A stretch of 64,000 nt of DNA from Leptogorgia sarmentosa (lineage: Eukaryota): positions 17,856,001-17,920,000 of the forward strand of contig OZ210885.1 in assembly GCA_964658305.1 (NCBI GenBank). Reading direction: 5' to 3'. Shown here piece after piece: positions 6,973 through 59,114 of this stretch. A program made the position numbers and the translations under genes. How positions within the stretch are numbered: the first letter of the stretch is position 1; the number at the start of each line of letters is the position of its first letter. The notes beneath the pieces were generated by a model, which was given only the letters and a program-made list of their open reading frames with translations, ran no database searches and had not been told where the DNA came from.

Positions 6973-6981
6973 CTGAAAAAC

Positions 6982-12280: not shown

Positions 12281-12310
12281 GGCATCTTACAAAAGTAACA
12301 AAAGATCGAG

Positions 12311-15300
12311 ATGTTTTGCCAAAAATTGTGGGACTTCAATCTCGAACGAAGCAAAATATTGTTTTAAATGTGGTGTTGGTAAGTGTATTTTTATTTACAA
12401 ACTGTTTTCTTTCTGAAATGGGACAGTTTGAGATCAATATTATTATGTAAATATTGATTATGTTTAATATAATATTAATATTTACAAAATGTTTTTACTT
12501 TATTTAATCCTTAGTGACTCCCAAAAGAGCAAATGTAGACGCTGAGAAAAGTCTGTGTGTCACATAAATATATTTTTAAACTTTTTATGCACTTTCAATA
12601 ATATTTAATACTTAGATAGCCCACTACATAAATTTTGTTATGCACAATGACAATGCAGTAGTCACATGTTTCCAGCATTGAACTCTATGCAATCTGGATT
12701 GATAACTTCATATAAACATGCCCATACAATGGCCCATACTTGCCTGATGCAAAGATGGCAGACTCAAAACTCGATGTTTTGCAAGCTTGAATCAGAATGC
12801 ACATTATAAAAAGCACTGATGCTTTTTCTTTTAAAAGGATAGTATATAATATTCCCAAGCTCTTTCTAGAAAGCCCAAAACCAAAAAAAGCTAAACATTT
12901 TTGTGTGCTTTTTTAGTCGATTTTCGTTTTATTTGCTTTATATTTCTACAGTAAAACAATTTTTGCAAGTTTTATGCATGTGGGTGATTTAATTGAAAGT
13001 ACTGTTGTCCTACTATGCTTTAGATAAAATTTGAAATCATACAAGAAAGAAGTGATGAAATTTATCATCACTTTTTCGTTTTACGAAGACTAAGAAAAAA
13101 TGTTTTAACTAACCCAACTCCTGAACCATTACCCTAAACCTACTGTTAACAATTGACATATAACTAACCCAAACCCCCACCAACAGGGGCGTAGCGAAGG
13201 GGGGTCCAGGGTGTACCCCCCCCCCCCCCAATGTTGTCTGTCAGCACAAATTACACTTCTGTCAGAAAATTTGAGGCGAGAGTTAGGTCTTATACAGATA
13301 ATTATAAAAATTGTTGGACAATTTTAAAATTTCTCTAAAACAAAACCACGAAAACTTCGAAAACCACGACCAAACCACACCTACGCCACGCCCATTTTGT
13401 TGGCAAAGTTGAGGCACATACCCCCCCCCCCAATCACATAGCCTTCGCTACGCCCCTGACCACCAATTGAGCGTTGCTAATCCTTATCCTAATTATATTA
13501 CCTGCAAAACATAAAAATTTGTTCCACTCAAAATTTTTTTACTGACATTGCAATGGAAGGGTTGATAAAATCATCATATCAATTCATCCTCTGATTGCCT
13601 CAAGTTGTGCAGTTTCATGAAATTGAAAAATTTCTGTTTTAATGGATTATCGATTGCATATGCAAAATTTTCAAAAGATTGAAAATAGTACAATTCATTA
13701 ACTGCTGAAGGACAAAGTTTCAAAACAGGACTCTGTAAATCTTTCGATTAACACATATGCATGGCAAATAAATTTTTGATACCCTTAATAGTTGTATCAA
13801 TTTTCCTTTCATATTAGGTGTGGCAGGATTTGAAATCATTTAAAATAATGCATACAAGCGAAGAAAGTTAAAAATGTATTACGGTAATACAAAATGTTGC
13901 ATTATCTATTTTTATTGCCTAATTAGATCAATAAGCCAGTCCAATAACATCTACTTCAACTACTCCCTCGGCTTCATCGAGTAGCACCACTGAAGTGGGA
14001 TTGAAATCATTCACTGAGTATAAATCATCCAAAGGAAAGCAGTGGAAATCAAGAGTGACTACGAAATCGAAAAAAGATAAAAATGAAGAAGTTGTTATTC
14101 AGGTGGGATTAATAGAATGGAATTATTGAGAAAGAAGATTGAAACCAAAGAGAGGCAAACGAATGGCCTTGAGAGTTTTTCTGAAAGATACATATGCTAC
14201 AATTCGTAAAAAAGCAATTGAAAAGTGGAAAAATTACCATCGAGATCTGTACGGCGAGGATAAAGAATACCTTTTAACATACGAAGATGGCAATGAAGCG
14301 CGGTTTTTACCTGGGACTCATTCATTTTTTTACTTGAAAAGCTACAGAGAGGAGATTGGAAAGGATTATAGGAGAATTATATTTTTCCTGTGCACCCAAG
14401 AAGATCAAACTACTGCAGAGAAAAGTAAAACATTTGATTATGCAGAGGCATCATCTGACACAAGCGAAGAAAATATGGGACTCGAAAGTCATAAATCATA
14501 TGATGAATGAAGAACTAGCCAGACAGCTTCAATCCGAGTATGACATTGAAGTCACAGAAGAAGTAATTGATTATTTCAATAACGGTGTACCTGAACTGCA
14601 AAATGTAGACAACGCAGAAGATTTACAAGATGATAAGCAAGATGACGTATCACTGCCTGAAGTAGTGAATATCGATGAAGTGAACATCAAATCTCACTGA
14701 TTTCATTCGAGCTATGGCAAGGAAAGTAGATGATTCTAATCAGTTTTTTCTAGTCATAAGAAGAAATGCAACATTGTCTAGAAAGCTGAGTATGTGGCAG
14801 CGACAAGCTACAAAGAAATCACCAGAAAAACTTTTCGTGTATGTTTTACGGGGGAGATGGGTATAGATTCTGGTGCTTTGTCCAAAGAGTTTGACTCAGA
14901 CTATAGATGAGATGGGAAAAACAATTTTTCCTAATGGAAGTCTCACTGACTCCATGCTTAACGTTCATAATGGCAGCTTTAAAACATGTGGCCAAATAGC
15001 GGCAGTTAGCATTGGCGAAGGAGGGCCCCCGCCAGCTTTTTTAGACGAATGTGTGTTCAATATGCTCGTGAATCCAAAAGCTGTGGACATGAACGATTTG
15101 AAAGTCGATCAATATTTTACACAGACGGAGAAGTGTAAATACGAATCGAGGTAAAGTGGATGCCAATTACGTGGTTTCCCTTTTCAGTCCTGTTCATTCT
15201 CCGGAAGGAACATCCCGACGGCATATCGAAGAGCAAATTGTGGATTGCTTTCAAGATTTTCTAATACAGCTAGAAGACAAAGTATCTGGGTACAGTGAAG

Positions 15301-15641
15301 CAATTGCATGGAAAAACCAAGATGAACAAGACGAAAGCGTGGCATGTGGGAGTGATGAACATCAAGAATGCTTTCAGTCTGCAGATCTTACACCAGCTGG
15401 AATATTAGGATGGCTTACAGGTCAAAAGCATGTGCCAATTAATGGTGAAAATCTGAAAATAACTATTCAGTTTAATCACAATTGTATGGAAACAAATCCC
15501 TCCCATAAGATCTGTTTCCCAGTGGTTGGAGTGTGTGGTCGTCAGATCACTTTTCCCGTCGTCCACATGAAAACTAAAGAAGAATTTAACAGTGTGTTCA
15601 TGACTGCAGTCAGTAAAGGACAAGCGTTTGCAAAACCTTAA
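12311..15641 (+). pseudogene. Zinc-ribbon + HECT E3 ubiquitin ligase (G2E3-like), degraded
   Basis: Exon 1 MFCQ.NCG.SISNEAKYCFKCG (12311-12378, 1-bp frameshift). HECT motifs FTGEMGIDSGALSKEF, ILGWLTGQ, FPVVGVCGRQITFP...GQAFAKP*. Several stops, frameshifts and an internal deletion near 15150. Confidence 0.8.
13184..13458. mobile_element. Non-autonomous hAT MITE in the HECT gene intron
   Basis: TIR CAGGGGCGTAGCGAAGG / CCTTCGCTACGCCCCTG. 8-bp TSD CCCACCAA / ACCACCAA (7/8). Confidence 0.85.
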
Positions 15642-16114
15642 GAAGAGAACATCAATGATTATTTGACAGGACTGAAGCATTGATATCGTTGTGTTTGTTT
15701 ACCATTGCAGATAGAGAAAGACTGTTGAAAGCATCATGATCAATCACATTCTGTTTATAGAACATTGCTGGTTTCACTAACTAAAGTAAATTTTTAGGAG
15801 GTTTTGCTGTATCCAGTAAACATTGCTGTTTGCGCACAGTACTACACCAAATTCAATGAACATACCCGAAGCAAGAATACTAGCATATGTAGAACTGTGA
15901 ACTGCTTCAGTAGTCTGTGAATTTTCCTTGTTTCACACACCAAATTTCAGTAATTTCAGTTTCTGTGAATGAAATATTATATTAATATTGAAAGATTGGT
16001 CGTTTGATTTTCTCAATTTTTTTCATTTTACATTCAGGCTGCGCCAAAAACTTTAGGAATGTAGGAAAACTTCCTAGTTGTCATATTCGGCATATTGTTT
16101 ATTTTTTCACTCCA

Positions 16115-16177
16115 CAATCTAGTACCCTGAGCCTGCGATCTTCCAAACGAAGATCGCAGGCTCAGGGTACGAGATTG
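16115..16177. mobile_element. 63-bp hairpin mini-MITE
   Basis: CAATCTAGTACCCTGAGCCTGCGATCTTC-caaac-GAAGATCGCAGGCTCAGGGTACGAGATTG: 29-bp arms with 1 mismatch. Confidence 0.7.
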
Positions 16178-16729
16178 GTCCAAACAAGCCACTAGAGCCA
16201 GTCTTCTGCTCGATTTGGAAATGGCCAATTCTCGGAAAGTTTTTTGGCTCAAACTGTTGTCCACCTTTAATAAACCCCCGGATGTGCATGTACGTCACAA
16301 ACGACACCACAGACGATTTTCCTGCATGTGTTTGATCAATATAATACCTTGAATGTCAAATTAGTTGAAATATTTTCAACGTCTTGTCTTATTGTTACTT
16401 ATTAGACGCGAACTTCTAAAAAGGTCCGGGACATGTTCCGACAAGAAACTTTCAAAAAATAACATGTTTTCGCGCATTTTGAGGGTGGTTTTTAAAAGAT
16501 TGGATCGTTTCGAAAGGAAACCTAATTTTAATTTGCAACAGTGTATGAGGGGCAAAGATTTTTGCCTTTTGTAAAGAGTATGCTGTCTCACGCTTGATAT
16601 GAAAGATCACAAACTAAAGTTTTTGGTGGGTGGAGTCAAAACGCCGATGACGTTTCACCTGGCCACATTTCATCACATGTGTCAATTTTAAACGCCATCA
16701 TTAACATTACCAAAAAATCCCTTTATTGA

Positions 16730-17421
16730 TCGACATGTGTAGCAGCCATCGTAGCATTGTGAATGCATGTGTCGATAACCAGCATTAGGGAAATCTTGCT
16801 GAATATCTCTTATCACTCTATCAAGTTCGTCCTGTGAAATGTCTGTCATGCTTTGCCTTACAGATAACCCAAATGTGCGCATTTGCCTAGAAATGGTACT
16901 CCAAGAGTAAGAGCGATGTCCGCTACGCTGACATGGTAATTTAATAAGTATGTAATTTGTTCTGAACTAATACTAAATCGTGGTCGCCCTCCTTGACCAG
17001 ATGATAATGTCTCTGACTGGAAAGACAATGACTGCCTGTTATCGAAGTTGTAATTTCGAAGGAGCGTTAGAGTATTTGTTATCAAACGCTCTATCTCGTT
17101 TGTCATCAAATTGATGTTGCATAAACAAACCAAATGCACTAACAGCTGTTCCAGGCGAAAAATTATACTGTCTACACCATCTACATCCAAGTCTCCATTC
17201 GATAATTGCTGTATAATATCTCGTATTGCCGAATGACATATTGTAGAATGATGTACAGCGCAATATTTCTTGCCGACTGTGTGTATCGGAATGACAAATT
17301 ATGTATCAGAATAACAAAATCTATTGCCGAACGGCAAAGCATACAAGATAATCATATACGACGAATAGCATTTTGTTAAACAAAACATACCATCGAATAT
17401 TGACACTAAAAACGGATCATA
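16730..17421 (-). mobile_element. End of another IS3EU-type element with transposase N-terminus (relic)
   Basis: GRPRFSISSEQITYLL....SVADIALTLGV / ISQDELDRVIRDIQQDFPNAGYR is homologous to the HTH region at 33726-33400. The minus strand begins TATGATCCGTTTTTAGTGTCAATATTC at 17421, similar to the terminus at 29766 (TATGGCAAGCCGTTTGTAGCAATATTC). The catalytic core is missing. Confidence 0.7.
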
Positions 17422-26417: not shown

Positions 26418-26432
26418 GCCTATGTTTTTAGT

Positions 26433-29765: not shown

Positions 29766-29827
29766 TATGGCAAGCCGTTTGTAGCAATATTCAGTAAACT
29801 GATATTTAGTTTAGTTCAACAAAAATA

Positions 29828-29950
29828 TTCAACATTCAACTAAACGCATTCAATTCAACATTCAACTAAACGCATTCAATTCAACATTCAACTAAATGCA
29901 TTCAACATTCAACTAAACGCATTCAACATTCAACTAAACGCATTCAACCA
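29828..29950. repeat. 21-bp tandem repeat in left TIR
   Basis: Unit CAACATTCAACTAAACGCATT, about 5 copies with small insertions. Confidence 0.85.
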
Positions 29951-30019
29951 ATTAACATTCAGCAAGTCATATGTGAGCCTACATGAAGTACTGGCAAAGG
30001 TTGATAAGTCAACAACAAG

Positions 30020-32248
30020 ATGGCAAGTCTTCAACAACTGTCTAAGTGCCTGAATGATGCTAGTAATCTAATCAATACGATGTTAGACAATGATACTCAG
30101 CCGCAGCAGCCTGCCCTCGCACCTTCACAACCAGTTCCACGATCAGAAAGACCAACAGAAGCTGTTAATGTGCCCTCTGTGACACAGAGGGAGTCTGTCA
30201 GAGCGACAATTAACTCGGCAGTACAACATGCACGATTAATGATTGGAGAGTCATCTTCAAGGGGTTTGTGTTCGCGATTGAATAGAAGAGAGCGGCTTCG
30301 AGTGACAAGTTCTAAACCATCCAGTACAGCGACAAAAAAACCTCGTCTGGAAAAGAAAGTTTTTGAGTTCGTTTTGTTTCACATCGAGGATTGTGATAAA
30401 AATGATACTGATACATGGTTGTTTTCGGAAAGTATGGTTGCAATACGTGGGTTTATTGAAATATCAACAACAGCGAGCGAAGAGGACATACGAACGGATC
30501 TTTGTAAAGCTATTCAACTCAAATTTCCAATGATAACTAAGAATGACTTCGAATTTGTGAGGGCCAATCGACGGAGAATTACGAAGCCTGTAAGCTGTAA
30601 TGAATACAACTACAACCAGGTCAAGCTACTTGCTGGCCAAGGGTGTATTTACTTAAAGATTAAAGATGGTTTAGAGTGTTTGTTCGTCGAAGAAGAACCT
30701 GGAGATGATGCATTTGATTTTGAGAAGGAAGGTAAGCAACGATTTTTTATCTCTGCCTTTGGTGACATTGTCTAAATCCTGTGTTTTAATCAAATAACTA
30801 TTTTTAACATCGTGCAAATTCATATCTACATTGTACACAACCACTATATATAATTTATAAGGCTGCAAAGAATATTTTCACATTAATATATTTAAGCTCC
30901 CATTCAATGTGAGATGAATACTACTGGCCACTGGGAACATCCAGTTGCTCTGAAGTAATGTAATACCACCCGCTTAACATGGGCATTGTTGATTTCATAA
31001 ATATATGCTAATGTTGCTTTTTAAGAAAAGTCCAAAGAAGAGTCAACAAAAGCTGTAACTTCAGGCCTTTCTGCAGCAGCAACCTCCACCACAGCATCCT
31101 CTACTTCTACAGCTGGCAACAGTCATCAAGTGTTACAGCAACGGTTATCAATTTTGCCAACTAACACCGTATCATCACTGTCTGGTAGCTCTCCACCAAA
31201 CCTTGTTCTGGAATCAGCACAACATGTAGATGTATTATCACTTACACCACCTGTTAACAGAAAAACTGCAATTTCTGACGTTGCTGCTGACTGTGTTGCC
31301 TATTGTAAAGAACACAACATCTTTGACCCAATTGAAATTCTTCAACATGCACAAAACTGTATTGTGACAGGAAAGCCACTTAATGGGTACACAGGTGATG
31401 AAGAATCTCTGGATGGTGAGTCAAACTTCATCCTCATAAGCTGTGAAGATGTCCTTGCAACTGCTTTAGATGAAGTAAGTGGCATTGAAAATCCTCAGTT
31501 ATCACTTGAAGTCTCTTTTTACGGGGAAAATGCTCAGGATGCAGGGGGGCCAAGAAGAGAATTCTTCAGGTTGTGCCTTCAGCAAATAATGGAGAAGTAC
31601 TTTGATAATGGACTGAAGGAGCACATATCTGAAGACTACAAAACTCTGGGCCTTATAATGGCACTATCCGTCTTGCAGAATGGCAAGATACCTAGGTTTT
31701 CAGAAGAATTGCTACAGGAGATTTTCATTTCTGATGTCCCACAATCTAGGTGCGTGGCTAATCTCCGAGAAGGATTTAACATGCTGGGCTTGGGTGACAT
31801 TGTAAAGAATTTGCCAATGCTTCTTCATCTTTTTCGTTCCTCAAATGCTGCTGCCTTAACAAGGAGAAAGTTAATGCACATGCTTACACCCATATTTTCG
31901 GAAGATGGATGTAACGCACGACCCTTTGAGAATGAAGCCTATGCAGCATTTTCCACATATACACGAAAGGCAGCTGGTGGAAAACGGGGTAATGTTACAC
32001 TTGAACACATATTACAATTTGTCTCTGCAACAGACCAGGAACCACCTCTTGGCTTCTCCACAAAACCAAGTATTGTCTTTCCATCTTCCACAACATCAGG
32101 TGCATGGTCATTTATACCAACCTCCAACACATGCGCTAACATGCTTCATTTGCCATGTCCAACAAGTGAAATACCACTTCCTAATGAGGAAAAACTCTTC
32201 GAGGTGTATGACATGGCATTTTGCAATGCATACTTTGGGAAACATTAA
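30020..32248 (+). CDS. HECT E3 ubiquitin ligase (G2E3-like), 2 exons (30020-30731, 31026-32248), ~644 aa, open
   Basis: A phase-1 GTAAG..AG intron joins the ORFs in frame. HECT motifs VSFYGENAQDAGGPRREFF, ILQFVSATDQEPPLGF, PTSNTCANMLHLP (catalytic Cys), terminal YFGKH*. Confidence 0.88.
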
Positions 32249-32487
32249 GTGTGATTCCAGTGATAGTTACTATACAAGTAGTTACTATCCAGTATACTTA
32301 TTTACATTATAATAAGTTAGTAACATTGGACAAAAGTATACCAATTTCGGAGGAACAAATAACTTTTGTAAATTGCGGTTGTAACAAAACTTTTGTCGTT
32401 TTATTGCTTTTACGTTCGCTGTGCCTTTTGCACCACAATATATTCATACGATGTTTGTTCATTTGTATTGAAATGACAGGTCTGTTT

Positions 32488-34038
32488 TTACTGCTCTGTG
32501 GGAGCATAATTACCTAACAGATCTAAAACCTCTTCATAAATATCAATACCCATTTGCACAGAAGGCATCAATGGATCTATAACTTGCAAAAGCTCTGCTT
32601 CAATCTCGTTTGCATTTGCAATGCTTAGTGGTTCTACAACAATATTGTTGTTGCTATCTTCAAATGGGGGTGGTCCATGAGGATCATACCCATAAAACTC
32701 CACATTCTCTGGTACATTGTCAGGTCCCCCACTTGATAAAGGATTATCTGGATTCATCATGTTGTTTACCCACATCTGGTATTGTGACCAATTTCGTGCA
32801 GTTCGCATTTTGTGATGATTGAATGCTTCAAGGTATTCCTGCAGAGCTTGATTGATTCTTGGGAGAAATACGAAATGTAAGGCAAACATATGAAGAGAAT
32901 TGCTCGTGTCAAGAATTCCTGAATCTTCCATACCGTAAAATACATAATAGTAATAGTGACAGACACATCGAAACACATCACGCCAAAGCCGCTCGATTCT
33001 CTGGTTATGTGTCGATGGACCAGCTATGAAACTTCCCTGATCGGCCCCCCTATTTTCAACCATTGCTTCACAAACCAGAACGTTCTCCACGCCATAGTCT
33101 ACTCAAATACGTGAAGGCCAAATTCCTCCATCCCTTTCAACAGCACTATGAAACAAATTGAGGACAGTAGTAGCTAGATTATTTGCACTGCAGTGAAGAA
33201 AAATTATTCTTCTCGAAAAGCCATCAATGCACCCATGTATGACCAGGCTCCACCTTATTAGCGAGTGATGTCCATCTAAGTGCCACAGGGAGTTTGCCCA
33301 TGGTACCTGGTAGCATCTACGGTAAACTGCAGCACCCCACCTTAACGCAACATTGGCCGGGTCAATTCTTGTTATACTTGCACGGAGTCGTCTCCTTGGC
33401 ACATGAATTCCAAGGGAACGGAGATAACCCATTAGAAAAACCTCTCCAGTGGTTCGTCCATGACGATTAATATAACCTCTAATTTTCTCATCTATTTCTG
33501 CATCAGATAGGTCACTGAAAGCACTCACATGATATAGTCCGTATTCCTGAACCCTTCTGTAAATAGTCCACCTAGAGACACCCAACAATCTGCCAATTCT
33601 TTGCTTTGAGAAACCCAGCTCCAAGAGGTCTTCTAACATTTCTGGCTGAATTAGGAATGAAGGTCTACCAGGTCTTCCCGTTTGACTAATATTACATCTG
33701 AGTGAGGTCACATTTGTTGGCCTCAACGACAGTTCAAGAGTGTGTCACTGCAAATTTTGCGAGATAGTTTCAAAGCAACCGGCGAGCAACTCCCACTGTT
33801 GTTGGTCATCTTCATTAGCTTCCTCGAGTATTAATCTTAACAGACTTATAGTTTGATCGAGAACGACAAGAAGGGTTCGTATTCCACTTACATTTCTGCT
33901 GTCATTATGGATAAGATAATCGGTTTTATCAAGCAGTGATAGAAAAAACAAGGGCAACTCTTCCTCGACATTGAAATCGTTTATTCCTTCTTTTAAATCT
34001 CGATTAATGTCCAAAACTTCTTCTGTTAAAACAGCCAT
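32488..34038 (-). pseudogene. Integrase-core DDE transposase, one reading frame with two in-frame TGA stops
   Basis: GRP..IQPEML, IGRLLGVSRWTIYRR (HTH), WHLDGHHSL, IDGFSR, RI*VDYGVEN, STHNQRIERLWRD. Stops at 33745-33747 and 33103-33105 with no frameshift. Confidence 0.9.
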
Positions 34039-34169
34039 ACTTCACCATTTTTGCCAACTGTTATTGTTTGGTGGGAGCACCTTTTTGGTAGTACTTCATG
34101 TAATATGCATTATCAACCTTTACTGGTACTTCATGTAGGCTCACATATGACTTGCTGAATGTTAATTGG

Positions 34170-34321
34170 TTGAATGTGTTTAGTTGAATGTTGAATGCGT
34201 TTAGTTGAATGTTGAATGCGTTTAGTTGAATGTTGAATGCGTTTAGTTGAATGTTGAATGCGTTTAGTTGAATGTTGAATGCGTTTAGTTGAATGTTGAA
34301 TGCGTTTAGTTGAATGTTGAA
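34170..34321. repeat. 21-bp tandem repeat in right TIR
   Basis: Unit TTGAATGCGTTTAGTTGAATG, about 7 copies; reverse complement of the left array. Confidence 0.88.
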
Positions 34322-34415
34322 TATTTTTGTTGAATTTTGGCCGTTGAACATTGAATTTTGGTTGAACTAAACTAAATATCAGTTTACTGAATATTGCTAC
34401 AAACGGCTTGCCATA

Positions 34416-43634: not shown

Positions 43635-44216
43635 TACCAAGCCCCATAAGGGCCATGAAAATTCTTACTTTTTTCAATGCCGATTTTTTTCCAATTCCGA
43701 CTTTTTTTTGAAATTTCGACTTTTTTGGAAACTCCGACTTTTTTAAACATTTTCCAAATTTCAAAAATATATCCCGACTTTTTCAAAATTCCGACCCGAC
43801 TTTTTTAAAAAATATCCCGACTTTCTTAATATTCCGACTTTTTTCAAATATATTCCGACAATTTTCTTGAACCAGTGTCAAAGATGGACGGCGGGGCGAA
43901 AGCAACAGAAGCTGAACAGGTAAATATAATATATTGCGCCTATTTGAATTGTTTATATACGTATGTTTATATATTGTTTATATGTTCTGACTGTAAGATG
44001 AATTTATTGTAATTAGAATTCCAATAGAGTGAATAGACGTGTTGAAACAAAGGAGCATTTCGAATAAATCAATTCAAAACATTCGGAGTACTGTATATAT
44101 ACTGTTGCACATGTTGTAATAAGCTCATATCGTTTAGTGTTTACATAATTTTTTGTTGCTTTGTTGTAAGTTGCAACTTACATAAGACGCAAGTTCTACC
44201 ATTTTGGTCTATTTAT

Positions 44217-44397
44217 ACCATAGGCAGCCCAGTGATCTGGGGTTTTATTTATGTTAACTGAGGTTGAATAGGGCTATTTCGTCATCCTTAGTTGTTTATA
44301 TGCGTGCGCCGACAATACGGTCACTCGCGTATGTAATTAATAGTATAATAATTGTCAATTATATAAATAAAACCCCAGATCACTGGGCTGCTATGGT
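44217..44397. mobile_element. MITE in intron 1 of the HECT gene
   Basis: ~34-bp TIR ACCATAG(G)CAGCCCAGTGATCTGGGGTTTTATTTA / TAAATAAAACCCCAGATCACTGGGCTGCTATGGT. Confidence 0.8.
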
Positions 44398-44782
44398 CCG
44401 ACACCGGACCTTATTCTTCTACGGTTATAGGTCCGACAACCTTAAGTTAACCTTAAACCTAACTCTAACATTTAAAAAATAACTCCAACCCCGACCATAA
44501 GGCTGACCCTAACCTTAGAAGGTGGAAATGTTTGAAATTTGAGAAGGAAAAAAACAAAAAAAATAGAAATTGTACTAGAAATAAAATAAAGACTGCACAC
44601 GGGACTCTAACTCGCGACCCACGCTTGCGAGTAAGTTGTGACACAACCACGCGTCAGGGGGCGCTTTATCCACTACGCTGCCGAGGACCAACTTCTAAAT
44701 CATCAAAATTCATTGTATATATAGCAAACAGTTGAAATATAGACAAAAATAATTTATTTTGTCGGACGAATAACCACTTCCT
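44394..44782 (-). mobile_element. Possible non-autonomous Helentron (DINE-like) with an internal tRNA-derived segment
   Basis: Terminal hairpin GGTCCGacacCGGACC, subterminal inverted repeats GGTTATAGGTCCGACAA / TTGTCGGACGAATAACC, TAACC(C/T) microrepeats, and A/B-box-like motifs at ~44600-44686. Confidence 0.45.
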
Positions 44783-47700
44783 AAAATTAAAATGCATTTT
44801 GAAAATTACATCGCCAGTAGTTGTCAGTGGTAGACTTATAATGCTGTTATGCTGTACATACTGTAGGAGCCACTACAACATTCGCATCTGTGCATCATGC
44901 ATGTTGTGTCAGATATCTCCCCATTTGGCCGGAATTTGTATGTCTGATCGATACAGCACCTGCAGCTGCTCATGTTGTAAATATTACATAAGAATGACAT
45001 AAAACATGGCAAGTGATCATGATGCAGATAGTTCTTGTTTAGTATTAACTGCCTTGTTACAATAATTTGACTTCCAGTATAGTAGTGTATTGGTATTAAT
45101 ATATATGTAATAATTTAATTTTAAAACATATAGGTGAAAAATTTCCTTCTCTCAATCGGTGTAGCAGAGGATGTTGCTCAAAAGTTTGAGGATGAAAAGG
45201 TGTGAATATGTCAAATCAATTTTCTATTATGTCTCCAGATATAGTTTTCACGATGTTAAAATTTTATTGAGGGTCCTTTTACCCCATGAGGGTGAAATAA
45301 TTCTTGTTAGTTTTATTTAAGATCCAATTTGAGTTTTCCCATTCAGATAATCCCCATTGTTATATAACTATTTGGGTCTGCTGGATTTTTTGTTCATGTA
45401 CCTATTATATTGACATAAAAAATTGGTAGTGAAGTATAAGCCTTAGCAAAGTAGAATGAGTGCTTTAAGACTAGTGTAAAATTTAGCAAAGCACCAGTGA
45501 CATTTTCTTGTAGTAAAGTAGTAAAGTGTTTTAGTTACAGAAATAAATTATTTCAATTTTAGATGACGTATAGTGCTGTAATGAAAGCAACAGATGAACA
45601 ACTAAGTAAATCTCTTTGTCTGACAAGACTTGGTGACCGTTTATCCTTGCGATCATTCTGTGAGAATCACTCTGAAAAAGCGTCTGGATGTTCAAACAAC
45701 GACAGTGAATTACGCAAGAAAAGACTGACAGAAGAACTAGCGAAAAAACGAAATAAAAAGAAACATACTGTACAGTCAGTTCAAAAAGGACAAAGCGTCT
45801 CAACAAAGAGTACAAGAAAAGTTGAACTTGAGTCCAAAGCAAGGTAAACGTTTCAAATTAATTAGAATGAAAGAAGGTGGTGGAACACGTATTGTAGATA
45901 TTGAGAAAACTGCAAACAAAGAGGAAATTATCAAAATTGCTAAAGGATTGTTCTTTCCTGATGGAAAATCAAGTTTTGGAAATGTTAGCGAAATGAAACT
46001 TGACTTGTTTAACTTCAAGAAAGAGAAGGTCTGCTCAATGCCTATGGAGGGTGAAAATGTTCCATTTACCTTGGGATTATACATTGATCATTTCAAATTA
46101 TCAAAGGTGAGGCTGTATCTGTCAACAATGCAAGAAGAAAACAACACTGACAGTGATCATGATTCTGATCATGACTCTGAATTCTCCGACAGTGTTTTTG
46201 AGCAGTCCCCCTTTGATGATCTTATGGTCCAACCACCTGAATTTGCACATACAATAACAGATCCACAGTCATCAAAAAGTAATACCCAGGACATTTTAAT
46301 TGGAACATCCAAGGAACGAGAAAAACTTAAAACCTTGATTGAGAAAGCATATGAAGAGTCCTTGCTAGCTGATCAAGCAAGATCTTCTGAAATGCCAGAT
46401 AACCTAGATGGTGTGTGTGAGCAGGTTGATGATTCTGCAGATGAATTAAGAAATACCGGAGCTGGACGGTTGCCAGAGGAACTGAATGTTTATGATCCCC
46501 ACTACATTGTGTCAGTAAGGCATCTTTCTCTTGGTGTGGTTACATGTTTATTTGCGTTAACAGATCTTATGTTTTCCGTCTATGACTGGGTAGGGTCGTT
46601 ACATAGCTCGCCAAAGTATTTTCAGCTATTCAAGTATTCAGGGGGCTGTGTATCCCCGCAAGAAAGCATTAGCTGCGCTGACAAATGTATGTTAACGATG
46701 GTAGAGTGTGACCATCCAGTGGTGTTTTCGTCTGATGAGGAAGATGTGATTCCCAAAGGCTTCGGACCATTATTGAGTAGTAGTTTCATTGATAATGCCA
46801 TAAGTATGGATCCAATTTCAACAGAATGCCCAGCAGTGATTATGGTGGATGATGATAAAGATGAAATGAAGAGTAATGGAAACAGTACTGAGTAAGTATA
46901 ATGCTATGATTGGCCAAGTTTCGAACAGATACTGTACGCCTTGAGCCGTATGTTTTCACGCCAAAACATTACCATACTGATAATATAATCACAATTTGTT
47001 TGAGCAGAATTGGTACAAAGTGAAGTAATTTGTTTTTACAATAGATATACGCTTGCTTTTGAATCATTTGTTATATGTTTCGCATTTATTAATGCAATAA
47101 GATACGTGTGTACATTCCAAACACCTACTATCCAAATACGCCCAAAACACTCGTTCAGACAAAGAAGCATTTCCAATTTGTATGTTAACTAAGGTAGGAG
47201 ACCCAGTGCTTTCCCTTAAGTAGATTGCAAAAATGCCAAATGTTGATTTTGATCCAATATTCTGAATTTTTTATATATTACAGGGAAGCTACCTCGTTGA
47301 AAGTAATTGGTTTAAGATACAAGCGACAGCAAGCTCTTGAAATACTGGAAAGAATGCCGACTATCACGATTGAAAGAAACACCATTGTTCCTACGTTACT
47401 TGAGCTTTACAAGACAAACTCGCTTTCGCTGAAGTTTGTCAATTTCATCATCAAGAATGAATTAGCTCAGGACTTAGATGGTGTAAAGCGTGAAATATAC
47501 TCCATCTTCTGGGATGAAATTACAAGTCTGTATTTTGAGGGAGGAAAGAGTGTGGTACTGCGGGTTGGTCCTGATGTCACCGATGAACTATGCACTATCC
47601 TTGGGAGAGCTATCATCCACACCTTTCTTATTACTGGTATATGGCCAATACAGATTTCTAAATTGTTTTCCATTGCGATATTGGTTGGCGAAGAATCACT

Positions 47701-48659
47701 AACTAATGACAATTTGCTTGATGCATTTCTCGAATACGTTCTTGAGTACGAGGCAATAATACTTCAGAAAGCTTTAACTGAAGCGGAAAGCGGTTCAATA
47801 ACATTGCCAACTCAGCAGCAAGTTTTGGATGTACTTGCTCCGTTTGGTTTGAGATCTTTGCCTACACACACCAACATCAAATCGTTGTTGGTGAGTACAG
47901 CCAAGTGCGAGCTGGTCCAGAAAGTTAATCGATCTATCAACAAATTTCGAGAAGGTTTGCTCGACATGGCCTTGGGTATTAAATTGTTGCTGATGTTAAG
48001 AAAGAAGATGTTCTTCAACTGTATGACGAACTTTGTCCTTCTCCAGAGAAAGTGCTGTCCTTGATTAGAGCTGATGTCGACGGTATGCTAACTAAGTCGC
48101 AAGAAGAAGTGTATCGCCATTTAAAGCGATATGTCAATGCGGCTGACATACCCACACTGAAACGTTTCATGCGTTTTGTCACCGGTAGTCATTTCTTAGT
48201 AGCCAATGAAATCAAAGTTATTTTTCATTTGAGCATAGGACGCTTGCCATGTTTGGTCGCGCACACGTGTGGATGTACCGTAGATCTACCTGTTGGAAGC
48301 TACACAGGATTTGTTGACTTCAAGTAATCCAACTTCGTTGTGTTTTGTTGGCACAATTCCGTGAGACAGACTCAGGTCAACGCAAGAAAAATGCATGGTT
48401 TCCTGATCGTATGTGAATATCAAAATTGTTATAGAAATTTACAGTATGTATTCCCACTGGGGGCTTTGCTAAACAATGCCTCTAAACAGGAACTAAGCCT
48501 ATTTACATATTCAGAGAGACCAAGCGTGTTCACAGAGTGGAACGACAAGCATAAAAACTCGGAAATAGGCAGTTTTTTCATCACTTTGCCACAAGGACGG
48601 GCGGACGGAGGACGAGGTAACTTTTTTGACTCACAACGTGTTGCAGCCGAGCCTTTGCC

Positions 48660-51021
48660 ATGGCACACGCCCGACCACAACCAGTCAATGTAGAAGCAGT
48701 GTTACATGATGAATATTTAGCTCAAGTACAACATCAACAAGGCGACGTAGAACAACCAGCTGTTCAACCACCACAAGCTCAACCACCGCAAGCTCAACCA
48801 CCGCAAGCTCAACCACCGCAAGCTCAACCACCGCAAGCTCAACCACCGCAAGCTCAACCACCACTAGCTCAACCACCGCTAGCACAGCCACAGGTTTGTC
48901 GAGTATCTATACGTTAATTCAGGGGTTTGCTTATTTCCCGGTAGCTTCACTCCCTTGCTTTTTAGACCGACAGATACCAGTGTTGTAGTTACATAGCTAC
49001 CCTTGTTACCAGATATATATTATCGCGCATTCAGGCTCCTCGGCGGTGGTATGATGTTCTTGAGCTGTCTGTTCATCGAGAGAGGCTTTCTTAGTACGCT
49101 TCATATTCTGTCCACGACGGGATTCTCGTGTCCAGTGCTTGCGAAGGTCATACTGTCTGCGGGATTGGCTGTTTGTATCTAAGAAATACGCCTGAGTAGA
49201 TTTAGGATGATTTCTCTACAAGTTTTACTTAACTTTAGAAGCTTCATATTCATACCTTTTGTTTTGTTGTTTACGTCGCACTTATAGTCACTCTGTCCCT
49301 ATAATTATATACATATTATATATTACATGTATTTCGTATCGCTCGTCTCTACCTTCAGTTTATCTCTGAGATCTTTTAAACTAGGTTAGTACCTTCTAAT
49401 GTGTTCCTCCTTCTGTTGAAGCAGAATCGGTGTTTCCCTGTAAGCAGAATTTAGTGTCACCATATCGGAGCAGAATTTATGGCGCTTTTATGAGAGTTCT
49501 TCATGATTTGGTCAAAATCGAATTTACAACGCCTTTGTTGAGCCAGAATCCGTAAGTTTTTGTCGAAACTGAATTTTTCGTTGCTTTTGTCGAAGTAATA
49601 CGAGTGCTTTTGTTGAAGCTGAATTTAGTGCTTTTGTCGAAACTGAATTAAGTGCTTTTGTCGAAGCTAAATTAAGTGCTTTTGTCGAAGCTAAATTGAG
49701 TGCTTTTGTCGAAGCTAAATTGAGTGCTTTTGTCGAAACTGAATGTGTGCTTTTGTCGAAACTGAATGTGTGCTTTTGTTGAAACTGAATTTATAGTGTT
49801 TTTGTTGAAACTTGATTTATTGTGCTTTTGTCGAGGCTCAGTTTATAGTGCTTTTGTCGAAGCTCAGTTTATAGTGCCTTTGTCGAGGCTCAGTTTATAG
49901 TGCCTTTGTCGAGGCTCAGTTTATAGTGCCTTTGTTGAGGCTCAGTTTATAGTGCTTTTGTCGAGGCTCAGTTTATAGTGATTTTGTCGAAGCTAAGTTT
50001 ATACTGCTTTCGTCGAAGCTAAGTTTATTCTACTTTTGTTGAAGCTCAATTTCAGTCAATGCTTTTGTCGAAGCCAAATCTATAGTGCTTTTGTAGAAGC
50101 TGAAATTTCTATGGTGCTTTGGTGGAAGTTCAATTTTAGTCGGCTTTTGTCGAAGCTCAATTTATAGCACCTTTGTCAAACCTGAATTTATAGTGCTTAA
50201 CTTATTGAATCTGAATTTATAGTGCTTTTGTCGAAGTTGAATTTATTATCCTTTTATTAACCTTCAATATTTATAGTGCTTTTGTCGAAGCTAAATCCTA
50301 TAATCCTTTTCATGAAGCAGGATTAATAGCGTTTTTTATCTAAATATAATTTATAATATAGTAAGCTTGTTAAAGCATAATTCCTACTGCTTTCGTTGAA
50401 GCAGAATCAACACTTGCATGTGGTTGAAGTAGAGCTATTCTTTTCACATTTCTTATATACAAGGGATATTATATATTGGAATTTTCTTTCCTATAGCCCC
50501 CTACGTTAGAGGAATTACAACAAAAAATCGAAACCTTACAAAAACAATCCAACGCTCAAACAGTAGCAGCTGCTCTGAATACACTACAAGGAGAACTCAG
50601 GAAGCCAAAGGGAATTTTTGATCCTCATACTGCCTTAGCTGCTTTGGAGAATCTAGTGGATATCTCGCGAGACAACGGAGACCCAATAGCACCTAGATAT
50701 AACATTATCTATAAACAGTCTCGTCCCTTACTATACAACTCACACTTCCAAAACGTACTTATGAAGCTTTTGGGCGACAAGGAAGATGTGGAAGTCGCCA
50801 AAGTTATTGAAAAAACATTGCGTCAACGACGATCTCCGACACGGTCCTCCCCTCAAGTTCCAGAATCTCCTACCTGGTCCCCACGATTTCGCCCATATTT
50901 TACCAGTAGATCCCAAATGCGCTGCTTCTACTGTAATGCTGTGGGGCATTTCGCCAGGGGATGTCCTTCAAGACCACTCCGCCGTTCTAGTGGCGCGGGT
51001 ACACCGAATACCCAAAGTTAA
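48660..51021 (+). CDS. gag-like protein with CCHC knuckle, predicted 2 exons (48660-48893, 50497-51021)
   Basis: (QPPQA)n exon ends CAG|GT. Acceptor TTTTCTTTCCTATAG| resumes in frame as PPTLEELQQKIETL...CFYCNAVGHFARGC. ~252 aa. Confidence 0.65.
48765..48893 (+). repeat. 15-bp coding tandem repeat (QPPQA)
   Basis: CAACCACCGCAAGCT, about 8-9 copies. Confidence 0.9.
49550..50410. repeat. Diverged minisatellite, 22-27-bp unit, roughly 30 copies
   Basis: Consensus close to GTGCTTTTGTCGAAGCTGAATTTATA. Lies inside the predicted gag intron. Confidence 0.9.
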
Positions 51022-51539
51022 CTGGTGGATAGTTAATATAGAGTTAATAAAAACTTATAAGAGTGTGTAATAAATTTATTCCGTTAGTCCAGTTGACTTT
51101 ACTTAAACTAAACAGCTAAACACTTAGTCATACAACATTTTCCAGTAGGAGTCACATAAAATTACCTAATTAAAATTATCTTTGTAAAAAAAAAAAAAAA
51201 AGAAAAAAAAAAAAAAAAAGAAAAAAGAAGAGAACAACAAATTACATGTCATAATATATTCAACACATGCCCACTACTTCTTTGCTGCTTATTAGGCTCT
51301 CTACCAAGAATTTGACACCGCAGTTCAAGATGCCCCACACAAATGCGATGGTGCAATTCCTTAGGGGAATCGGATATACCATTTAGTCCTCTTCTGTCGC
51401 CTCACCATGTTTCCGCAGGACACGTCCATCCATCTCCAACGTGGTTACGCTTCTGTGACCCCAACACCTTCGTTTCTGGACAGTTGCACCAGCATGCCCC
51501 GTTTTGGGAAACAATTTTGCAGAATTCTTCCAAAAAGTC

Positions 51540-52714
51540 GTGGAGTTCTTGCGGGCTAAATATTACAAAATGGCGGCTGATATAGGCGCGAGCTAAAGAG
51601 TGGTGATGTGTTTGTCTGTTTGATCATGGATTTTGTTTCGCATGAATATCCAGATAAAAAGAAATATGTTCGCAGCGACGAGTGACTTTAGTGAAATAGA
51701 GGTTAATTTATGAGCGTTTACGCCGTTTAAAACACTATTTATACTAAGGAAATTTATACCCAAAAATATCATGACGCAAATTGCAGACATTGGCATTGCT
51801 TTTAAAGATATTAATTAAAGAGGTTCGCGTTCGCTATGCAATTTAGATCATCAAAGCAAAAATATCATAACGCAATTTATGCAATTGAACACAGCGAATA
51901 TTTAAGGTTATGAAAGAGTTTAATGTCTTGACACAATTGCGCGTATATTTTCCATATGATACTTTAGCGCGATACTTCAGCGTGTCAGTACTGTCGCACT
52001 CACACACTGTACATGTTTGGATTGCCCGCGGTGTCATTGTGATCACGGAATATCTACTATATTTTGACGCTTCGCCATACGGAATGGTTGAAACATTCAA
52101 TCCCAGGAAAATAGATTTCGTAGCTTGTAATAAAACGGGTTTGTGCGTTTATTAAGCGCGAGACAAAACAAACAAAATCATATATAGTTTCAAGTATTCT
52201 GTTTTGAACCTACGCGTACTGCGCATACCGATCCTACATACACTTTAGCGTCTACGCAAATGCGCATCAATGGACGGAATATATTGTATATAAATATATT
52301 ATTATGATACGGTATTGAAAAGGGTAAATTTGGTTTTTAGAGAGCCACATTTTTCACAAACAATCGCAAAGCGCTGTGTCTATTTTAAAGACGCAATAAC
52401 ATAAAACGCGATATCATATGTCGTCAAGTTTCAATTCCTTATGCAATTTGATATATGATCGCGGGAATTCCGGAAGGCGAGATAGTCATGAAAGCTTATA
52501 TCAAGTATTGAATACGTCTCTGCACAACTTCACGTCTTGCCTAGTATTTTTTTGTGCTATTCGCCTATTCCCTAGCAGTAAACCATTTTATACATGCAAG
52601 ATCGCGTAATAGGGACAGATAAGATGTGTGTATCGAAAAGCTGAAAACAAATAAGACTTGATCATCAAGCTACATAGGCGCAACCTCACATAGGCGCAGA
52701 TACATGTACACTTT
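51540..52714. mobile_element. Non-coding insertion of unknown class interrupting the RT gene
   Basis: RT-like coding sequence stops near 51535 and resumes at 52715. The insert has repeated (C/T)ATAGGCGC motifs near both ends. No TSD was found. Confidence 0.55.
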
Positions 52715-54352
52715 GTGTACCTATTTTTAAATCTTTGGATCAAAGACCTCCCGTTTTCGTTGGACAAAGTTACTGATCTTCCTCGTTATGTCGAGGAAAA
52801 TCATTACCAAACCGTAATGGACGATAAGAGCGGCTACGACCATGTTCTGCTCACCGATCGCAGTCAAACGTTTTTTGGCCTCGCATGGTCGGGTTGGTAC
52901 TTCTGCTATCGCACCATCCCGTTCGGCTGGAAAGCAAGCGCCTATGTTTATCACACGATTGGTCTCCAAGCAACTAGTTACGCACGCTCCCACGGTGTCC
53001 CTTGTTCCCAACATATAGACGACAGGCACCTAGGCCAGCTTCGCATAAAAGCCGAATACCGTAGTGCCCCCTTACCTTCCAATTGGGCCCTGGCTCTGGC
53101 GGCAGCATATATTATGTGTTACCTGCTTATACATCTTGGTTATTTCATTGGTTTGGAAAAATCTATCCTAGTGCCACGACTCGTGATCCCTTTCTTAGGC
53201 TTGCTCTCCGACTCCACCAAACAAGCATTCCTGTTACCTGAGGACAAAAAACGCAAATTTATTTCACTTCGCGAGTCTATTTTACAGAAGAAAATGGTTT
53301 CACTCAAGAACTTACAAAAATTAGCAGGGAAAATCCTTTCACTCTCTCTCGTTGTCCCAGGTGCACGTCTATATACTTCCTCTATCTACCAAGCAGTTTC
53401 CCGGCTGCACTTTTCAACGCGGCCAGCCCCCATTAAGGGTTAATTACTCAGAGAAATTCAATCTTGGCGATTCCTAGACACCTGGAGTGGCCATCTACCA
53501 TGGCGTTCAGAATATCATTTGCAGTTGAGCCTTTCCTCAGATGCATCTAGCACAGGTTGGGGTGGAATCATTAACTTCCCAGACCAGCCACCTGAAACCG
53601 TTAGGGACCTCTGGGACACCAATGACCGCTCACAGCCTATTTGCGTCCGAGAGGCAAAAGCGCTATTCCATACGCTTGTCGCGGCCGGTTCCAGGATCGA
53701 TAATTCCTGTGTTGATTGCCACGTCGACAATCAGACACTTATACATTGCTGGAATCAAGGGAGGGTCTAAGAATCAGGAACTCAGTAATGTTTTGAAAGA
53801 CTTATTTTCTCTTTCGCTGAACCGCAATTCTCAATTGGTCTTTTTGCGTCAAAGGAAAACCCCTCCGATACTCCCTCTCGCACACTGTCAGATTTAGATT
53901 GCACCCTCGTTCCGTTTCCTTGGCGTCTAATACAACAAGCCTTTGGACCCCACACTGTAGACCTTATGGCTCTTCCCACCAACGTAATGCTTGACCAGTC
54001 TGGCAGTCCTTTAAGATTTTTCTCGCCTTTCCCGACCGCTACTGCAGCGGGAACCAACGTCTTCTCACAGCAACTAACTTCGGAGAACGCCTATGTGTTC
54101 CCTCCCTTTGTCCTTATTGGCCCGCTCCTGAAATTCCTCCTTTTGCAGCGCTGCTCCTTTTCCATGGTCTTGCCCGATATCTCACCGCGTAGATACTGGT
54201 GGCCTTTGTTGACAGGCCAATGCAATGCCGCCTTTTTGTCAGGTAAAAAAGGCGACAAAGATATCCTGCTGTTCCCTACCAAGGATCTTCCTACCTTCAA
54301 TACCCGTCCACTTCTGTGGGATTTATGGGTCTTCCGCTTCACTCATTGTTAA
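52715..54352 (+). pseudogene. RT / RNase H / MT-like ORF of the DIRS-like element
   Basis: DDKSGYDHV, TIPFGWKASAYVYH, HIDD (variant of YIDD), SDASSTGWGG, ICVREA, VDNQ, DLMAL, YVFPPF, WWP. Frameshifts present. Confidence 0.88.
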
Positions 54353-56843
54353 CGTCGCAAGTTCCCCGTGTGTGGAAGCCTGCGGAACGTTGCCCTGCGT
54401 GTTACTACCCCAATGATGCTGGTTTTCAGTTTTGTCAACGATGCGGTTTCCGGAAAGAGATACCTCCTAATTTACTTGATAATCGAATAGAGTTGGATTT
54501 ACCAGCCATTAACGCTCGCCTCCAATCTTTAGACTCATTGCGCACCCAAAAACCATATCAGCATCAAACATCTCGACTCCAACAGGAATTAGAAACCTTT
54601 TTAGCTTCTCTTCCTCTTCCGAAAACTTTGGTATCCACTTCCCCCGAGGATCTGATTCGTTTTCTGATCTGGAAAGACAAATCAGGAAAAACAAAAGTGC
54701 ATATAGACCCCTGTCGTTTTTTTGGATCTAACAACAGACGTACGAATTGTACATGTTCCTCCCGACTCGCGGCCGGCACCATAGAAAACTATATTGCCAA
54801 GCTCAGAACGATCTTTTCTTCAATTGGGCCAATGGAGTCAGCAGCCAGTTCGTCGTCTTTCACTCCTGGCAATCCAGCTAACCATCCACGTATCTACCAC
54901 TACCTGAAATCCATACGCGAAGAACAAGCACAAGCCAGAGTTACACCAAAACAAGCAGTGCCTTTATTCTTCAACAAATTTCTTGCGTTATCCTCCCATA
55001 TTAAAAAGTCTTTACTACAACCTGGTATCAATCCAACATCCTGCTTCATATATGCTCGAGACCTCGCATTCTTCTGTTTGGACTTTTATTCCGGAGATCG
55101 AGCCTCCGATCTGGGTCGACTTAAAACTCACGATGTCTTGTGCCTCCCGGATAATCAGGGTCTGTTATTTCGCCATACCTTTGGGAAAACCCTCCGCGGA
55201 CAACATACCCACATGTTTGCTGTCAAGCCCTCTGCCTCCCCTTCATGCCCGGTAACCAATCTTAGGTCATACATTCTCCTCTGCGATCGCATGAATATCA
55301 ACTTACGACATGGTTTTCTCTTTCGCACCACTGACAAACACGGATGTGTCACCGATGCTCCTTTCCTCGGTTCTGCAGTCACCAACCGTTTGAAGAAATA
55401 CCTCGGTCAGCTCCACCTTGATGATGGCGAAACCGCTCATAGCTTTAGGGCCGGCTGTTCAAATACCTTATCCCTTCTCGGCGCATCTCAGGAAGAGGTC
55501 GCAAAACATATAGGTTGGAGAAGTGTCTCCACAGCTGCCTACTACACTCAAACAGATGCAGTGATGAGTCCAACCTCCACCTCCACAGTCCTAACGGACA
55601 GTGTGATTCCTATCGATCCTATGCAACCACCACCCGCTCATCAGCTTGGCGCCCTATTATATCAAAAATATCAAAAATATCATAACGCAATTTATGCAAT
55701 TGAACACAGCGAATATTTAAGGTTATGAAAGAGTTTAATGTCTTGACACAATTGCGCGTATATTTTCCATATGATACTTTAGCGAGATACTTCAGCGTGT
55801 CAGTACTGTCGCACTCACACACTGTACATGTTTGGATTGCCCGCGGTGTCATTGTGATCACGGAATATCTACTATATTTTGACGCTTCGCCATACGGAAT
55901 GGTTGAAACATTCAATCCCAGGAAAATAGATTTCGTAGCTTGTAATAAAACGGGTTTGTGCGTTTATTAAGCGCGAGACAAAACAAACAAAATCATATAT
56001 AGTTTCAAGTATTCTGTTTTGAACCTACGCGTACTGCGCATACCGATCCTACATACACTTTAGCATAAAATAACATAAAACGCGATATCATATGTCGTCA
56101 AGTTTCAATTCCTTATGCAATTTGATATATGATCGCGGGAATTCCGGAAGGCGAGATAGTCATGAAAGCTTATATCAAGTATTGAATACGTCTCTGCACA
56201 ACTTCACGTCTTGCCTAGTATTTTTTTGTGCTATTCGCCTATTCCCTAGCAGTAAACCATTTTATACATGCAAGATCGCGTAATAGGGACAGATAAGATG
56301 TGTGTATCGAAAAGCTGAAAACAAATAAGACTTGATCATCAAGCTACATAGGCGCAACCTCACATAGGCGCAGATACATGTACACTTTGTGTACCTATTT
56401 TTAAATCTTTGGATCAAAGACCTCCCGTTTTCGTTGGACAAAGTTACTGATCTTCCTCGTTATGTCGAGGAAAATCATTACCAAACCGTAATGGACGATA
56501 AGAGCGGCTACGACCATGTTCTGCTCACCGATCGCAGTCAAACGTTTTTTGGCCTCGCATGGTCGGGTTGGTACTTCTGCTATCGCACCATCCCGTTCGG
56601 CTGGAAAGCAAGCGCCTATGTTTATCACACGATTGGTCTCCAAGCAACTAGTTACGCACGCTCCCACGGTGTCCCTTGTTCCCAACATATAGACGACAGG
56701 CACCTAGGCCAACCTCCACCTCCACAGTCCTAACGGACAGTGTGATTCCTATCGATCCTATGCAACCACCACCCGCTCATCAGCTTGGCGCCCTATTTCG
56801 TTCGAGAAACAATCTGGAAGGGTTTTCGTTAGCATTCCCGTAA
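54316..56843 (+). pseudogene. Tyrosine recombinase with N-terminal zinc ribbon; natural C-terminus displaced by a duplication
   Basis: CPAC...FCQRCG, DRASDLG, FGKTLRG, CPV, HSFRAG, HIGW...AAYY. The natural end ALFRSRNNLEGFSLAFP* lies at ~56790-56843, after the inserted block. Confidence 0.85.
55570..56797 (+). repeat. Local duplication: copy of ~51857-53037 between 89-bp direct repeats
   Basis: ~55672-56711 nearly matches 51857-53037 apart from a ~140-bp deletion. 55570-55658 equals 56709-56797. Confidence 0.93.
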
Positions 56844-58731: not shown

Positions 58732-59114
58732 GTTCCTACGATTGAAAGGGTATAATGGCCAACATTTCGGGGGGGGGAGAAATGGAAAAAAGTCGGAATT
58801 TCAAAAAAAAAGTCGGAATTTCAAAAAAAGTCGAAATTTCAAAAAAAGTCGATATTTGAAAATAAAAGTCGGAATTTCACGAAAAAGTCGGAATTTGAAA
58901 AAAGAAGTCGGAATTTCAAAAATCGGGATGAAAATAAAGTAAGAATTTTCATGGCCCTTAAGCCTAGTTCTCATATGTCGCTGATGGTCTGCGACTATCG
59001 GCGATGCGTGAAGACGACTAGTTCTCATATATCGCTGACGGTCGCCGACCTTAGTGAGCCGATGGTCTGCGACAATGTGAGTTTCCTGGCGGGAAACTCC
59101 GCGTTTTCAAAAAC

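Follow-up and report, generated by a model that had tools for sequence, protein, structure and literature searches.

A convergent transposase and a shortened HECT-domain gene as a recurrent two-gene architecture of IS3EU transposons

Introduction

Two encoded proteins have been attributed to IS3EU transposons (PMC10853768). A meeting report from 2012 speaks of DNA transposons with conserved host-derived proteins that are thought to regulate transposition (PMC3520738). In the accounts of rust-fungus IS3EU elements, the ends read TAYGG..CCRTA, and a gene for a protein-modifying enzyme, either an alpha-kinase or a TET/JBP dioxygenase, lies opposite to the transposase (PMC12730594). Here, we describe an IS3EU element of Leptogorgia sarmentosa that has the same type of ends and the same opposed layout, with a HECT gene instead of the kinase or dioxygenase. 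The element occupies positions 29766-34415 of a stretch of 64,000 nucleotides (assembly GCA_964658305.1, contig OZ210885.1, positions 17,856,001 to 17,920,000), which as a whole is called the window below. It shares with IS3EU/GingerRoot transposons the TA..TA ends and an integrase-core DD34E transposase, and a second element in the window also has their 6-bp target-site duplication (TSD). Unlike them, it has a HECT protein as its second product, its transposase is dead, and it lacks a TSD.

The pairing of a transposase with a convergent HECT gene is an under-described two-gene architecture. Its unexpected part is the conserved loss of what is very probably the docking segment for the ubiquitin-conjugating enzyme (E2), with the active site kept.

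Structure of the Window Element

The element is bounded by terminal inverted repeats (TIRs) of 61 nt (29766-29826 and 34355-34415) that are 98% complementary and each open with TATGG; with the subterminal 21-bp arrays, the repeats reach 30007 and 34110 (Table 1). They enclose a HECT gene on the plus strand and a transposase gene on the minus strand, the layout that the original prediction had proposed for this locus. The transposase is matched by PF24764 (rva_4) on two halves, at 138 and 92 bits, and has the catalytic residues D255, D314, and E349 (DD34E). By eye, its motifs match those of IS3EU-1_CVi in a supplementary alignment of PMC10045372. The TIR termini are of the TAY..RTA type at the two elements of the window that retain both ends, TATGG..CCATA at 29766/34415 and TACC..GGTA at 43635/61993. 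The ends, the transposase class, and these motifs bear out the earlier assignment to IS3EU.

The window element is a defective copy of this cut-and-paste transposon. It cannot move on its own because two in-frame TGA codons (33745-33747 and 33103-33105) interrupt the transposase, the latter of them in the stretch that separates D255 from D314. The integrase-core DDE type foreseen for this gene is confirmed, in a frame that is no longer open. The second stop is spanned by contigs of three samples (X1, X5, and X6) and the first by contigs of two (X1 and X5); no change is listed at either. The copies visible in this species therefore share the defect, with the limits that contigs lose rare variants and that the covering contigs of X1, X5, and X6 may be one locus. 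Programmed read-through of the TGA codons was considered and rejected, as the second site is occupied by Arg in 19 of 20 aligned loci and the residues at the first site vary. The transposase is open in the related loci L002, L004, and L006. Deleted copies or alleles also exist: contigs of X1 and X6 skip 263 bases of the transposase (33462-33726), and HECT exon 2 lacks 354 bases (31434-31789) in one X1 contig.

A 6-bp TSD had been expected for these elements. It is present at the second element (AAATCG) and absent at the window element, which has CAGGTG on its left and TGATGT on its right. The left flank is a LINE (long interspersed nuclear element) reverse-transcriptase frame that runs uninterrupted in other contigs, and the right flank is a hAT-like coding region. 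The simplest reading of two ends in unrelated flanks is a rearrangement after insertion. Locus L055 likewise has no 6-bp TSD, and the other related loci do not hold both ends. Contigs of samples X1 (four) and X6 (two) show other flanks at 34415, and these may include left ends.

The predicted spliced HECT product has 644 aa and no internal stop. Over its full length, it is 81% identical to P0136, a protein of 642 aa named for Paramuricea clavata. The Pfam HECT model matches it at 26.6 bits, above the cut-off of 23.9. The few named homologs come from corals, an octocoral, and a mussel and are labelled 'uncharacterized' or 'leucine-rich repeat-containing DDB_G0290503'. Contigs of sample X20, guessed to be RNA, fail to join the two exons.

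Table 1. Positions of the IS3EU-type elements of the window and of their parts, counted from the first letter of the window.
Feature	Positions	Strand	Remarks
Left TIR, window element	29766..30007	+	61-nt core from TATGG; 21-bp subterminal array 29827-29948; extension to 30007
HECT gene exon 1	30020..30731	+	N-terminal helical region, then conserved domain of ~110 aa (30353-30685)
HECT gene intron	30732..31025	+	phase 1, GT..AG; same gene intronless in related L004
HECT gene exon 2	31026..32248	+	Ser/Thr-rich linker, short HECT domain (about 31307-32245)
13-residue link	31727..31765	+	replaces a segment of ~80 residues of solved HECT domains, very probably the E2-binding small subdomain
Catalytic-position Cys	32132..32134	+	PTSNTCAN; Phe 4 residues before the C-terminus likewise kept
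IS3EU-type DD34E transposase	32488..34038	-	516 codons; N-terminal helical domain, helix-turn-helix region, rva_4 core
Right TIR, window element	34110..34415	-	ends CCATA; 21-bp array 34169-34322; no TSD
Second IS3EU element	43635..61993	+	TACC..GGTA ends; TSD AAATCG at 43629-43634 and 61994-61999
HECT gene, second element	45100..48327	+	exon limits approximate, start unmapped; long-type HECT, motif spacing 230 aa
Transposase, second element	57457..58800	-	open frame of 447 codons; motifs like IS3EU-1_DR / IS3EU-1_CGi
Harbinger transposon	58961..61978	.	nested in right TIR of second element; TTA duplication
Third, relic element	12313..17421	+	frameshifted HECT gene to 15641; candidate end 17421

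Occurrence of the Gene Pair in Related Loci

An alignment of 45 HECT homologs led to 251 metagenome matches, the best 80 of which were kept and correspond to 78 loci; viral contigs yielded none. An IS3EU transposase is found in 25 of the 78 HECT loci, each time downstream of the HECT gene and on the opposite strand, and no match lies on the plus strand. Where at least 1.5 kb of downstream DNA is available, the convergent transposase is present in 24 of 30 loci. The 25 paired loci form 13 clusters at 80% nucleotide identity. In L004, both genes have open frames, of 590 and 524 aa. The 28-base start of the window TIR is found again in other loci, on the far side of the transposase in L003, L006, L019, and L052 and ahead of the HECT gene in L005, and the flank differs at each recurrence.

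The HECT gene is under purifying selection. The ratio of nonsynonymous to synonymous substitution rates (dN/dS) is 0.00-0.63 for HECT in 14 of 19 chosen pairs, the rest being saturated, and 0.08-0.57 for the transposase; the pairs are not independent. Thus, the ratio for HECT, which the check proposed with the original prediction was to measure, lies below 1 in every unsaturated pair. Together, the 24 of 30 loci, the 13 clusters, the dN/dS values, and the common terminus establish the transposase and its convergent HECT gene as a standing architecture in many families, and the proposal that this is not a one-off gene capture holds.

A comparison of descent gave a divided answer. For 16 elements, the distance matrices of HECT and transposase show a correlation (r 0.47, Mantel p 1e-4). 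The two trees have 5 of 13 splits in common; some of the splits that differ are supported conflicts. Redundant loci were left out of this comparison, and L062 was dropped for want of an alignment. Since linked genes are expected to share descent, the matrix correlation is no proof of co-evolution.

As a separate observation, L026, L027, L031-L035, and L040 represent one decayed copy of the L004 family in eight contigs (~99% identity), apparently a single old insertion.

The Shortened HECT Domain

The structure predicted for the window protein has the bilobal HECT fold. The model of the HECT domain has a pLDDT (predicted local distance difference test) of 85.6 and, among the matches listed, matches HECT domains exclusively. 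VIA-align aligns it to HUWE1 (6xz1) with a Z score of 20.5 and a root-mean-square deviation of 3.5 over 270 aligned residues, and to UBR5 with a Z score of 21.2. Of 45 close homologs, 44 retain the catalytic Cys, as do all 42 non-gap rows of a diverse set (27-65% identity). Phe or Tyr occupies position -4 in 39 of 40 non-gap rows.

The length of the domain is reduced, however. In the window protein, 155 residues separate the GGP motif from the C-lobe's LxF motif; a hand count gave 237 for E6AP and 247 for AREL1. Among 221 proteins examined, all 84 that have both motifs show a spacing of 101-179 aa, and 72 of them fall at 150-159. The profile alignment to E6AP runs to chain residue 126 and resumes at 289, so that 95 profile positions stand for 163 residues, and the model fills structure spans of 350 residues (E6AP) and 382 residues (HUWE1) with 272 and 310. 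In the model, helix 151-159 leads directly into helix 166-176, through a link that measures 9-14 residues in 44 of 44 rows. The hairpin region before the missing segment is also about 13 residues shorter than that of E6AP. Thus, the N-lobe falls short by about 80 residues, a feature common to the whole clade.

According to PMC3077247, the N-lobe's small subdomain hosts the E2 site; one passage there words the site as adjacent to the large subdomain. From the aligned ranges and the known fold, the missing piece is very probably this E2-binding small subdomain. The standard mechanism of an E3 ubiquitin ligase is therefore unlikely for the window protein. Pfam scans of the window gene and of 30 full-length homologs detected no N-terminal PHD/RING-like fingers. 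The gene had been called an intact HECT ligase. The open frame and the catalytic Cys in its PTSNTCAN context agree with that description, and the domain, about 80 residues short, does not; an ordinary E3 is not supported for this clade, which lacks the segment hosting the E2 site in solved HECT domains.

Possible Functions of the HECT Protein

The reading preferred here, with a probability of about 45%, is a catalytic role associated with the transposase: the shortened protein would likely carry ubiquitin on its Cys and possibly act on the transposase of its own element. The steps of this mechanism differ in likelihood. That the cysteine still forms a thioester has somewhat better than even odds. 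Charging would follow a non-standard route, in which most likely the middle domain or a host partner replaces the lost docking site. Whether the HECT protein binds the transposase by way of N-terminal modules that match (two helical ones in the window clade, two SAM domains in a sister clade) is evenly balanced. A mark that sends the transposase or transpososome to removal or turnover after strand transfer is somewhat less likely than not. ClpX, which acts on the Mu transpososome, provides the analogy for such a self-encoded disassembly factor in eukaryotes. The odds are well against the complete chain, in which an animal IS3EU clade with a minimal, E2-site-free HECT protein, charged in a novel way and docked by co-evolved modules, would mark the spent transpososome for disassembly.

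The candidate middle domain comprises about 110 aa and is conserved between two subclades (HHalign 86%, E 4.7e-6). For it, neither Pfam nor PDB sequence searches returned a match, and Atlas returned unnamed clusters only. A ubiquitin-like beta-grasp fold is our guess from its sequence. The middle region of the first window element does not align with its counterparts in the second and third elements, and a single-sequence fold of the full-length L004 HECT protein reached a pLDDT of only 36.5.

Docking to the transposase is suggested by the N-termini and by a complex model. The HECT N-termini vary, with SAM domains and C2HC zinc fingers in some homologs and helices in the window clade. In L055, both genes begin with a SAM domain (2627-3160 on the plus strand and 7542-7811 on the minus strand). 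SAM domains also occur on the transposases of L017, L044, L049, L050, and L059 and on the HECT genes of L036 and L043, and are absent from both genes of the window element, of L004, and of L006. The complex model of the L004 transposase-HECT pair scores 0.48, versus 0.00 for the best of three controls; its runs share at least 30% of contacts, and partner pLDDT is at least 62. The mark for a pass is reached by 51 of 78 solved pairs and 2 of 108 mismatched pairs. In a benchmark of eukaryotic proteins, passes comprise 39 of 65 solved pairs that have no like complex and 2 of 126 unrelated pairs. The model thus lends weak support to docking in L004. Among the roles first suggested for the E3, action on the transposase has gained weak and indirect support from this model and the matched N-termini, and degradation of host silencing factors has gained none.

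Several points weigh against a catalytic, transposase-associated role and the pairing. The sampling of loci is biased to the clade of the window element. The transposase is absent in 6 of the 30 loci with sufficient downstream DNA; the HECT match contains stops in four of these, a frameshift in one, and neither in L051. The supported tree conflicts (L029 and L021/L053) imply that the genes have sometimes been swapped or that partial alignments mislead. The residue before the catalytic Thr-Cys is Asn instead of His in 25 of 42 rows. We know of no way in which a HECT protein without an E2 site is charged. The match of SAM with SAM and helical with helical modules comes from two clades, about one independent change, and is therefore only a hint; in the second window element, a SAM-like HECT start faces a transposase without SAM. 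The complex score of L004 lies in a range in which a pass is wrong more often than it is right; scores of 0.60 or less include only 5 of 78 solved pairs, yet all 4 passing mismatches (of 180). This model gave no interface and used L004 instead of the window copy. Finally, the HECT domain of G2E3, a related host protein of class IV, is reported to be non-functional (PMC3673628).

That report is also the precedent for a non-catalytic function, which we consider unlikely. The short HECT protein would then be a scaffold or decoy. By binding the transposase, ubiquitin, or a host E3, it would keep the host ubiquitin system away from the transpososome. The absence of the E2-docking segment from all 84 measurable homologs fits this explanation, as does the shortened hairpin before the gap. 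However, a dead domain is expected to lose both the Cys and the aromatic residue at -4, and both have been kept down to 27% identity.

An active ligase directed at host silencing, chromatin, or DNA-repair proteins instead of the transposase is distinctly unlikely. The diverse N-termini (SAM, C2HC zinc fingers, and a UBX-like region) resemble substrate-binding modules, and the HECT frame has stayed open in the window copy though its transposase is dead. Ubiquitin-pathway enzymes on other transposons (PMC9741609) and the TET/JBP and alpha-kinase genes of fungal IS3EU elements (PMC12730594) point in the same direction. However, no analysis indicated a host target, the weak pass of the complex model and the matched N-termini favour the transposase, and the problem of charging persists.

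An ordinary E2-dependent HECT E3, in which an unseen exon replaces the segment or the segment does not matter, is very improbable. In its favour, the HECT fold and the catalytic residues have been preserved, and the HECT domain of the second window element is of normal length. Against this explanation, the short link lies within one continuous exon in the window gene and in the intronless L004, the two flanking helices abut in the model, and the small subdomain is where the E2 site is placed (PMC3077247). Neutral carriage of host fragments, similar to Pack-TEs (transposable elements that pick up gene fragments) and to GingerRoot in Selaginella, of which 29% of copies hold host gene fragments (PMC6839031), would suit the merely partial tree congruence but is largely refuted by the convergent layout in 13 clusters and three window elements, by whole open genes, by dN/dS below 1, and by the common terminus.

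Other Elements in the Window

The second IS3EU element has a perfect TSD, and 45 of 55 terminal bases of its two ends match once the nested Harbinger transposon is set aside. Its HECT gene is frameshifted close to position 48000, and a stop next to nested retroelements terminates it; by eye, the protein starts with a SAM-like region. Searches with this protein returned no homologs among longer proteins and no PDB match. The window HECT protein is short, that of the second element is of normal length, and the transposase types differ; therefore, both HECT types exist in IS3EU. A UBX-like region (46300-46760) follows a helix of FAF type ('AYEESLLADQ'), and its top Atlas matches are all UBX (best 0.87); Pfam is negative for the region, and the Atlas match is a lead only. 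Such a region, if correctly read, would suggest p97 recruitment.

One or more tyrosine-recombinase retroelements are nested in the second element at 48330-56800. They include partial tandem duplications (51843-52249 equals 55657-56064, and 52395-53037 equals 56069-56711 at 100%) and a 26-bp array (49558-50296). The second element itself interrupts a P-loop ATPase frame (43500-43634 and 61994-62930), which is followed by a small basic open reading frame. We take this ATPase, from its motifs, to be of the Polinton/Maverick-like type.

The third element is a relic that keeps only the 5' part of its transposase (minus strand, about 16700-17298). Position 8930, proposed as its left end, does not match the end at 17421, for which a search of the window showed no corresponding left TIR, and 8930-9197 looks like a separate small element. 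This small element has TACGG..CCGTA ends, a 20-bp array, and no TSD that could be seen, and is possibly a non-autonomous IS3EU-type derivative. The claim that the layout recurs in the window with unrelated TIRs and divergent proteins is therefore upheld by the second element, whose HECT gene is frameshifted, and by the gene remains of the relic, with the start at 8930 given up. Directly upstream of the relic HECT gene lies a hAT transposon (9307-12283) with an open exon of 570 codons (PF05699 and PF25431).

Elsewhere in the window, labels were assigned by eye. A DIRS-like tyrosine-recombinase retrotransposon with overlapping frames occupies 36660-40366. A TIR element at 19352-27094 (30 nt, 93%) contains a relic of a P-element/THAP9-like transposase and a nested hAT. 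Another TIR element, with THAP and Mutator-like/KDZ-type frames, lies at 938-5761, and a further transposase fragment at 6082-7088.

Comparison With Known Systems

The pairing of IS3EU and HECT was not found in the literature searched, a scope outside which lie Repbase entries, Kojima 2019, subscription papers, and the supplements of PMC6839031 and PMC3673628. No HECT is named in the main texts of PMC10045372, PMC6839031, PMC12730594, and PMC10853768 or in the two supplements searched. An apparent 'HECT' match in PMC3520738 proved to be part of 'trophectoderm'.

The pairing gives a name to the second protein of a little-studied transposon superfamily. If it is general, many divergent HECT gene models of corals and molluscs would be transposon genes, which would alter counts of the ubiquitin system. 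At 50% identity, the HECT homologs form 219 clusters with E below 1e-30, and 3437 with E below 1e-3, the latter including ordinary HECT proteins. A natural HECT protein that keeps its Cys and has no E2 site offers a direct test of whether HECT chemistry can dispense with that site. The intact two-gene element L004 allows transpososome disassembly to be tested in a eukaryotic system.

Canonical HECT E3s (E6AP, HUWE1, NEDD4, AREL1, and UBR5) share with the window protein the extended N-terminal helix, the large N-lobe subdomain, the C-lobe, the catalytic Cys, and the Phe at -4, with Z scores of 15-21. The window protein differs from them in an N-lobe about 70-90 residues shorter, in an identity of 15-22%, and in Asn, mostly, for His before Thr-Cys. 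The class IV HECTs (G2E3, GL-Metazoa, and GL-Bikonta) are likewise highly divergent and vary in domain arrangement (PMC3673628). Unlike them, the window gene has no PHD/RING fingers, and that source, in which the string 'transpos' does not occur, draws no link between these proteins and transposons.

Other DNA transposons also carry parts of the ubiquitin system, namely the VTD/OTU deubiquitinases of Helitrons (PMC9741609) and the F-box of Zisupton (PMC12062965). As described there, these domains are part of the transposase itself and serve to remove ubiquitin or as adaptors to SCF, whereas the IS3EU elements described here have a separate gene with a ligase-type active site.

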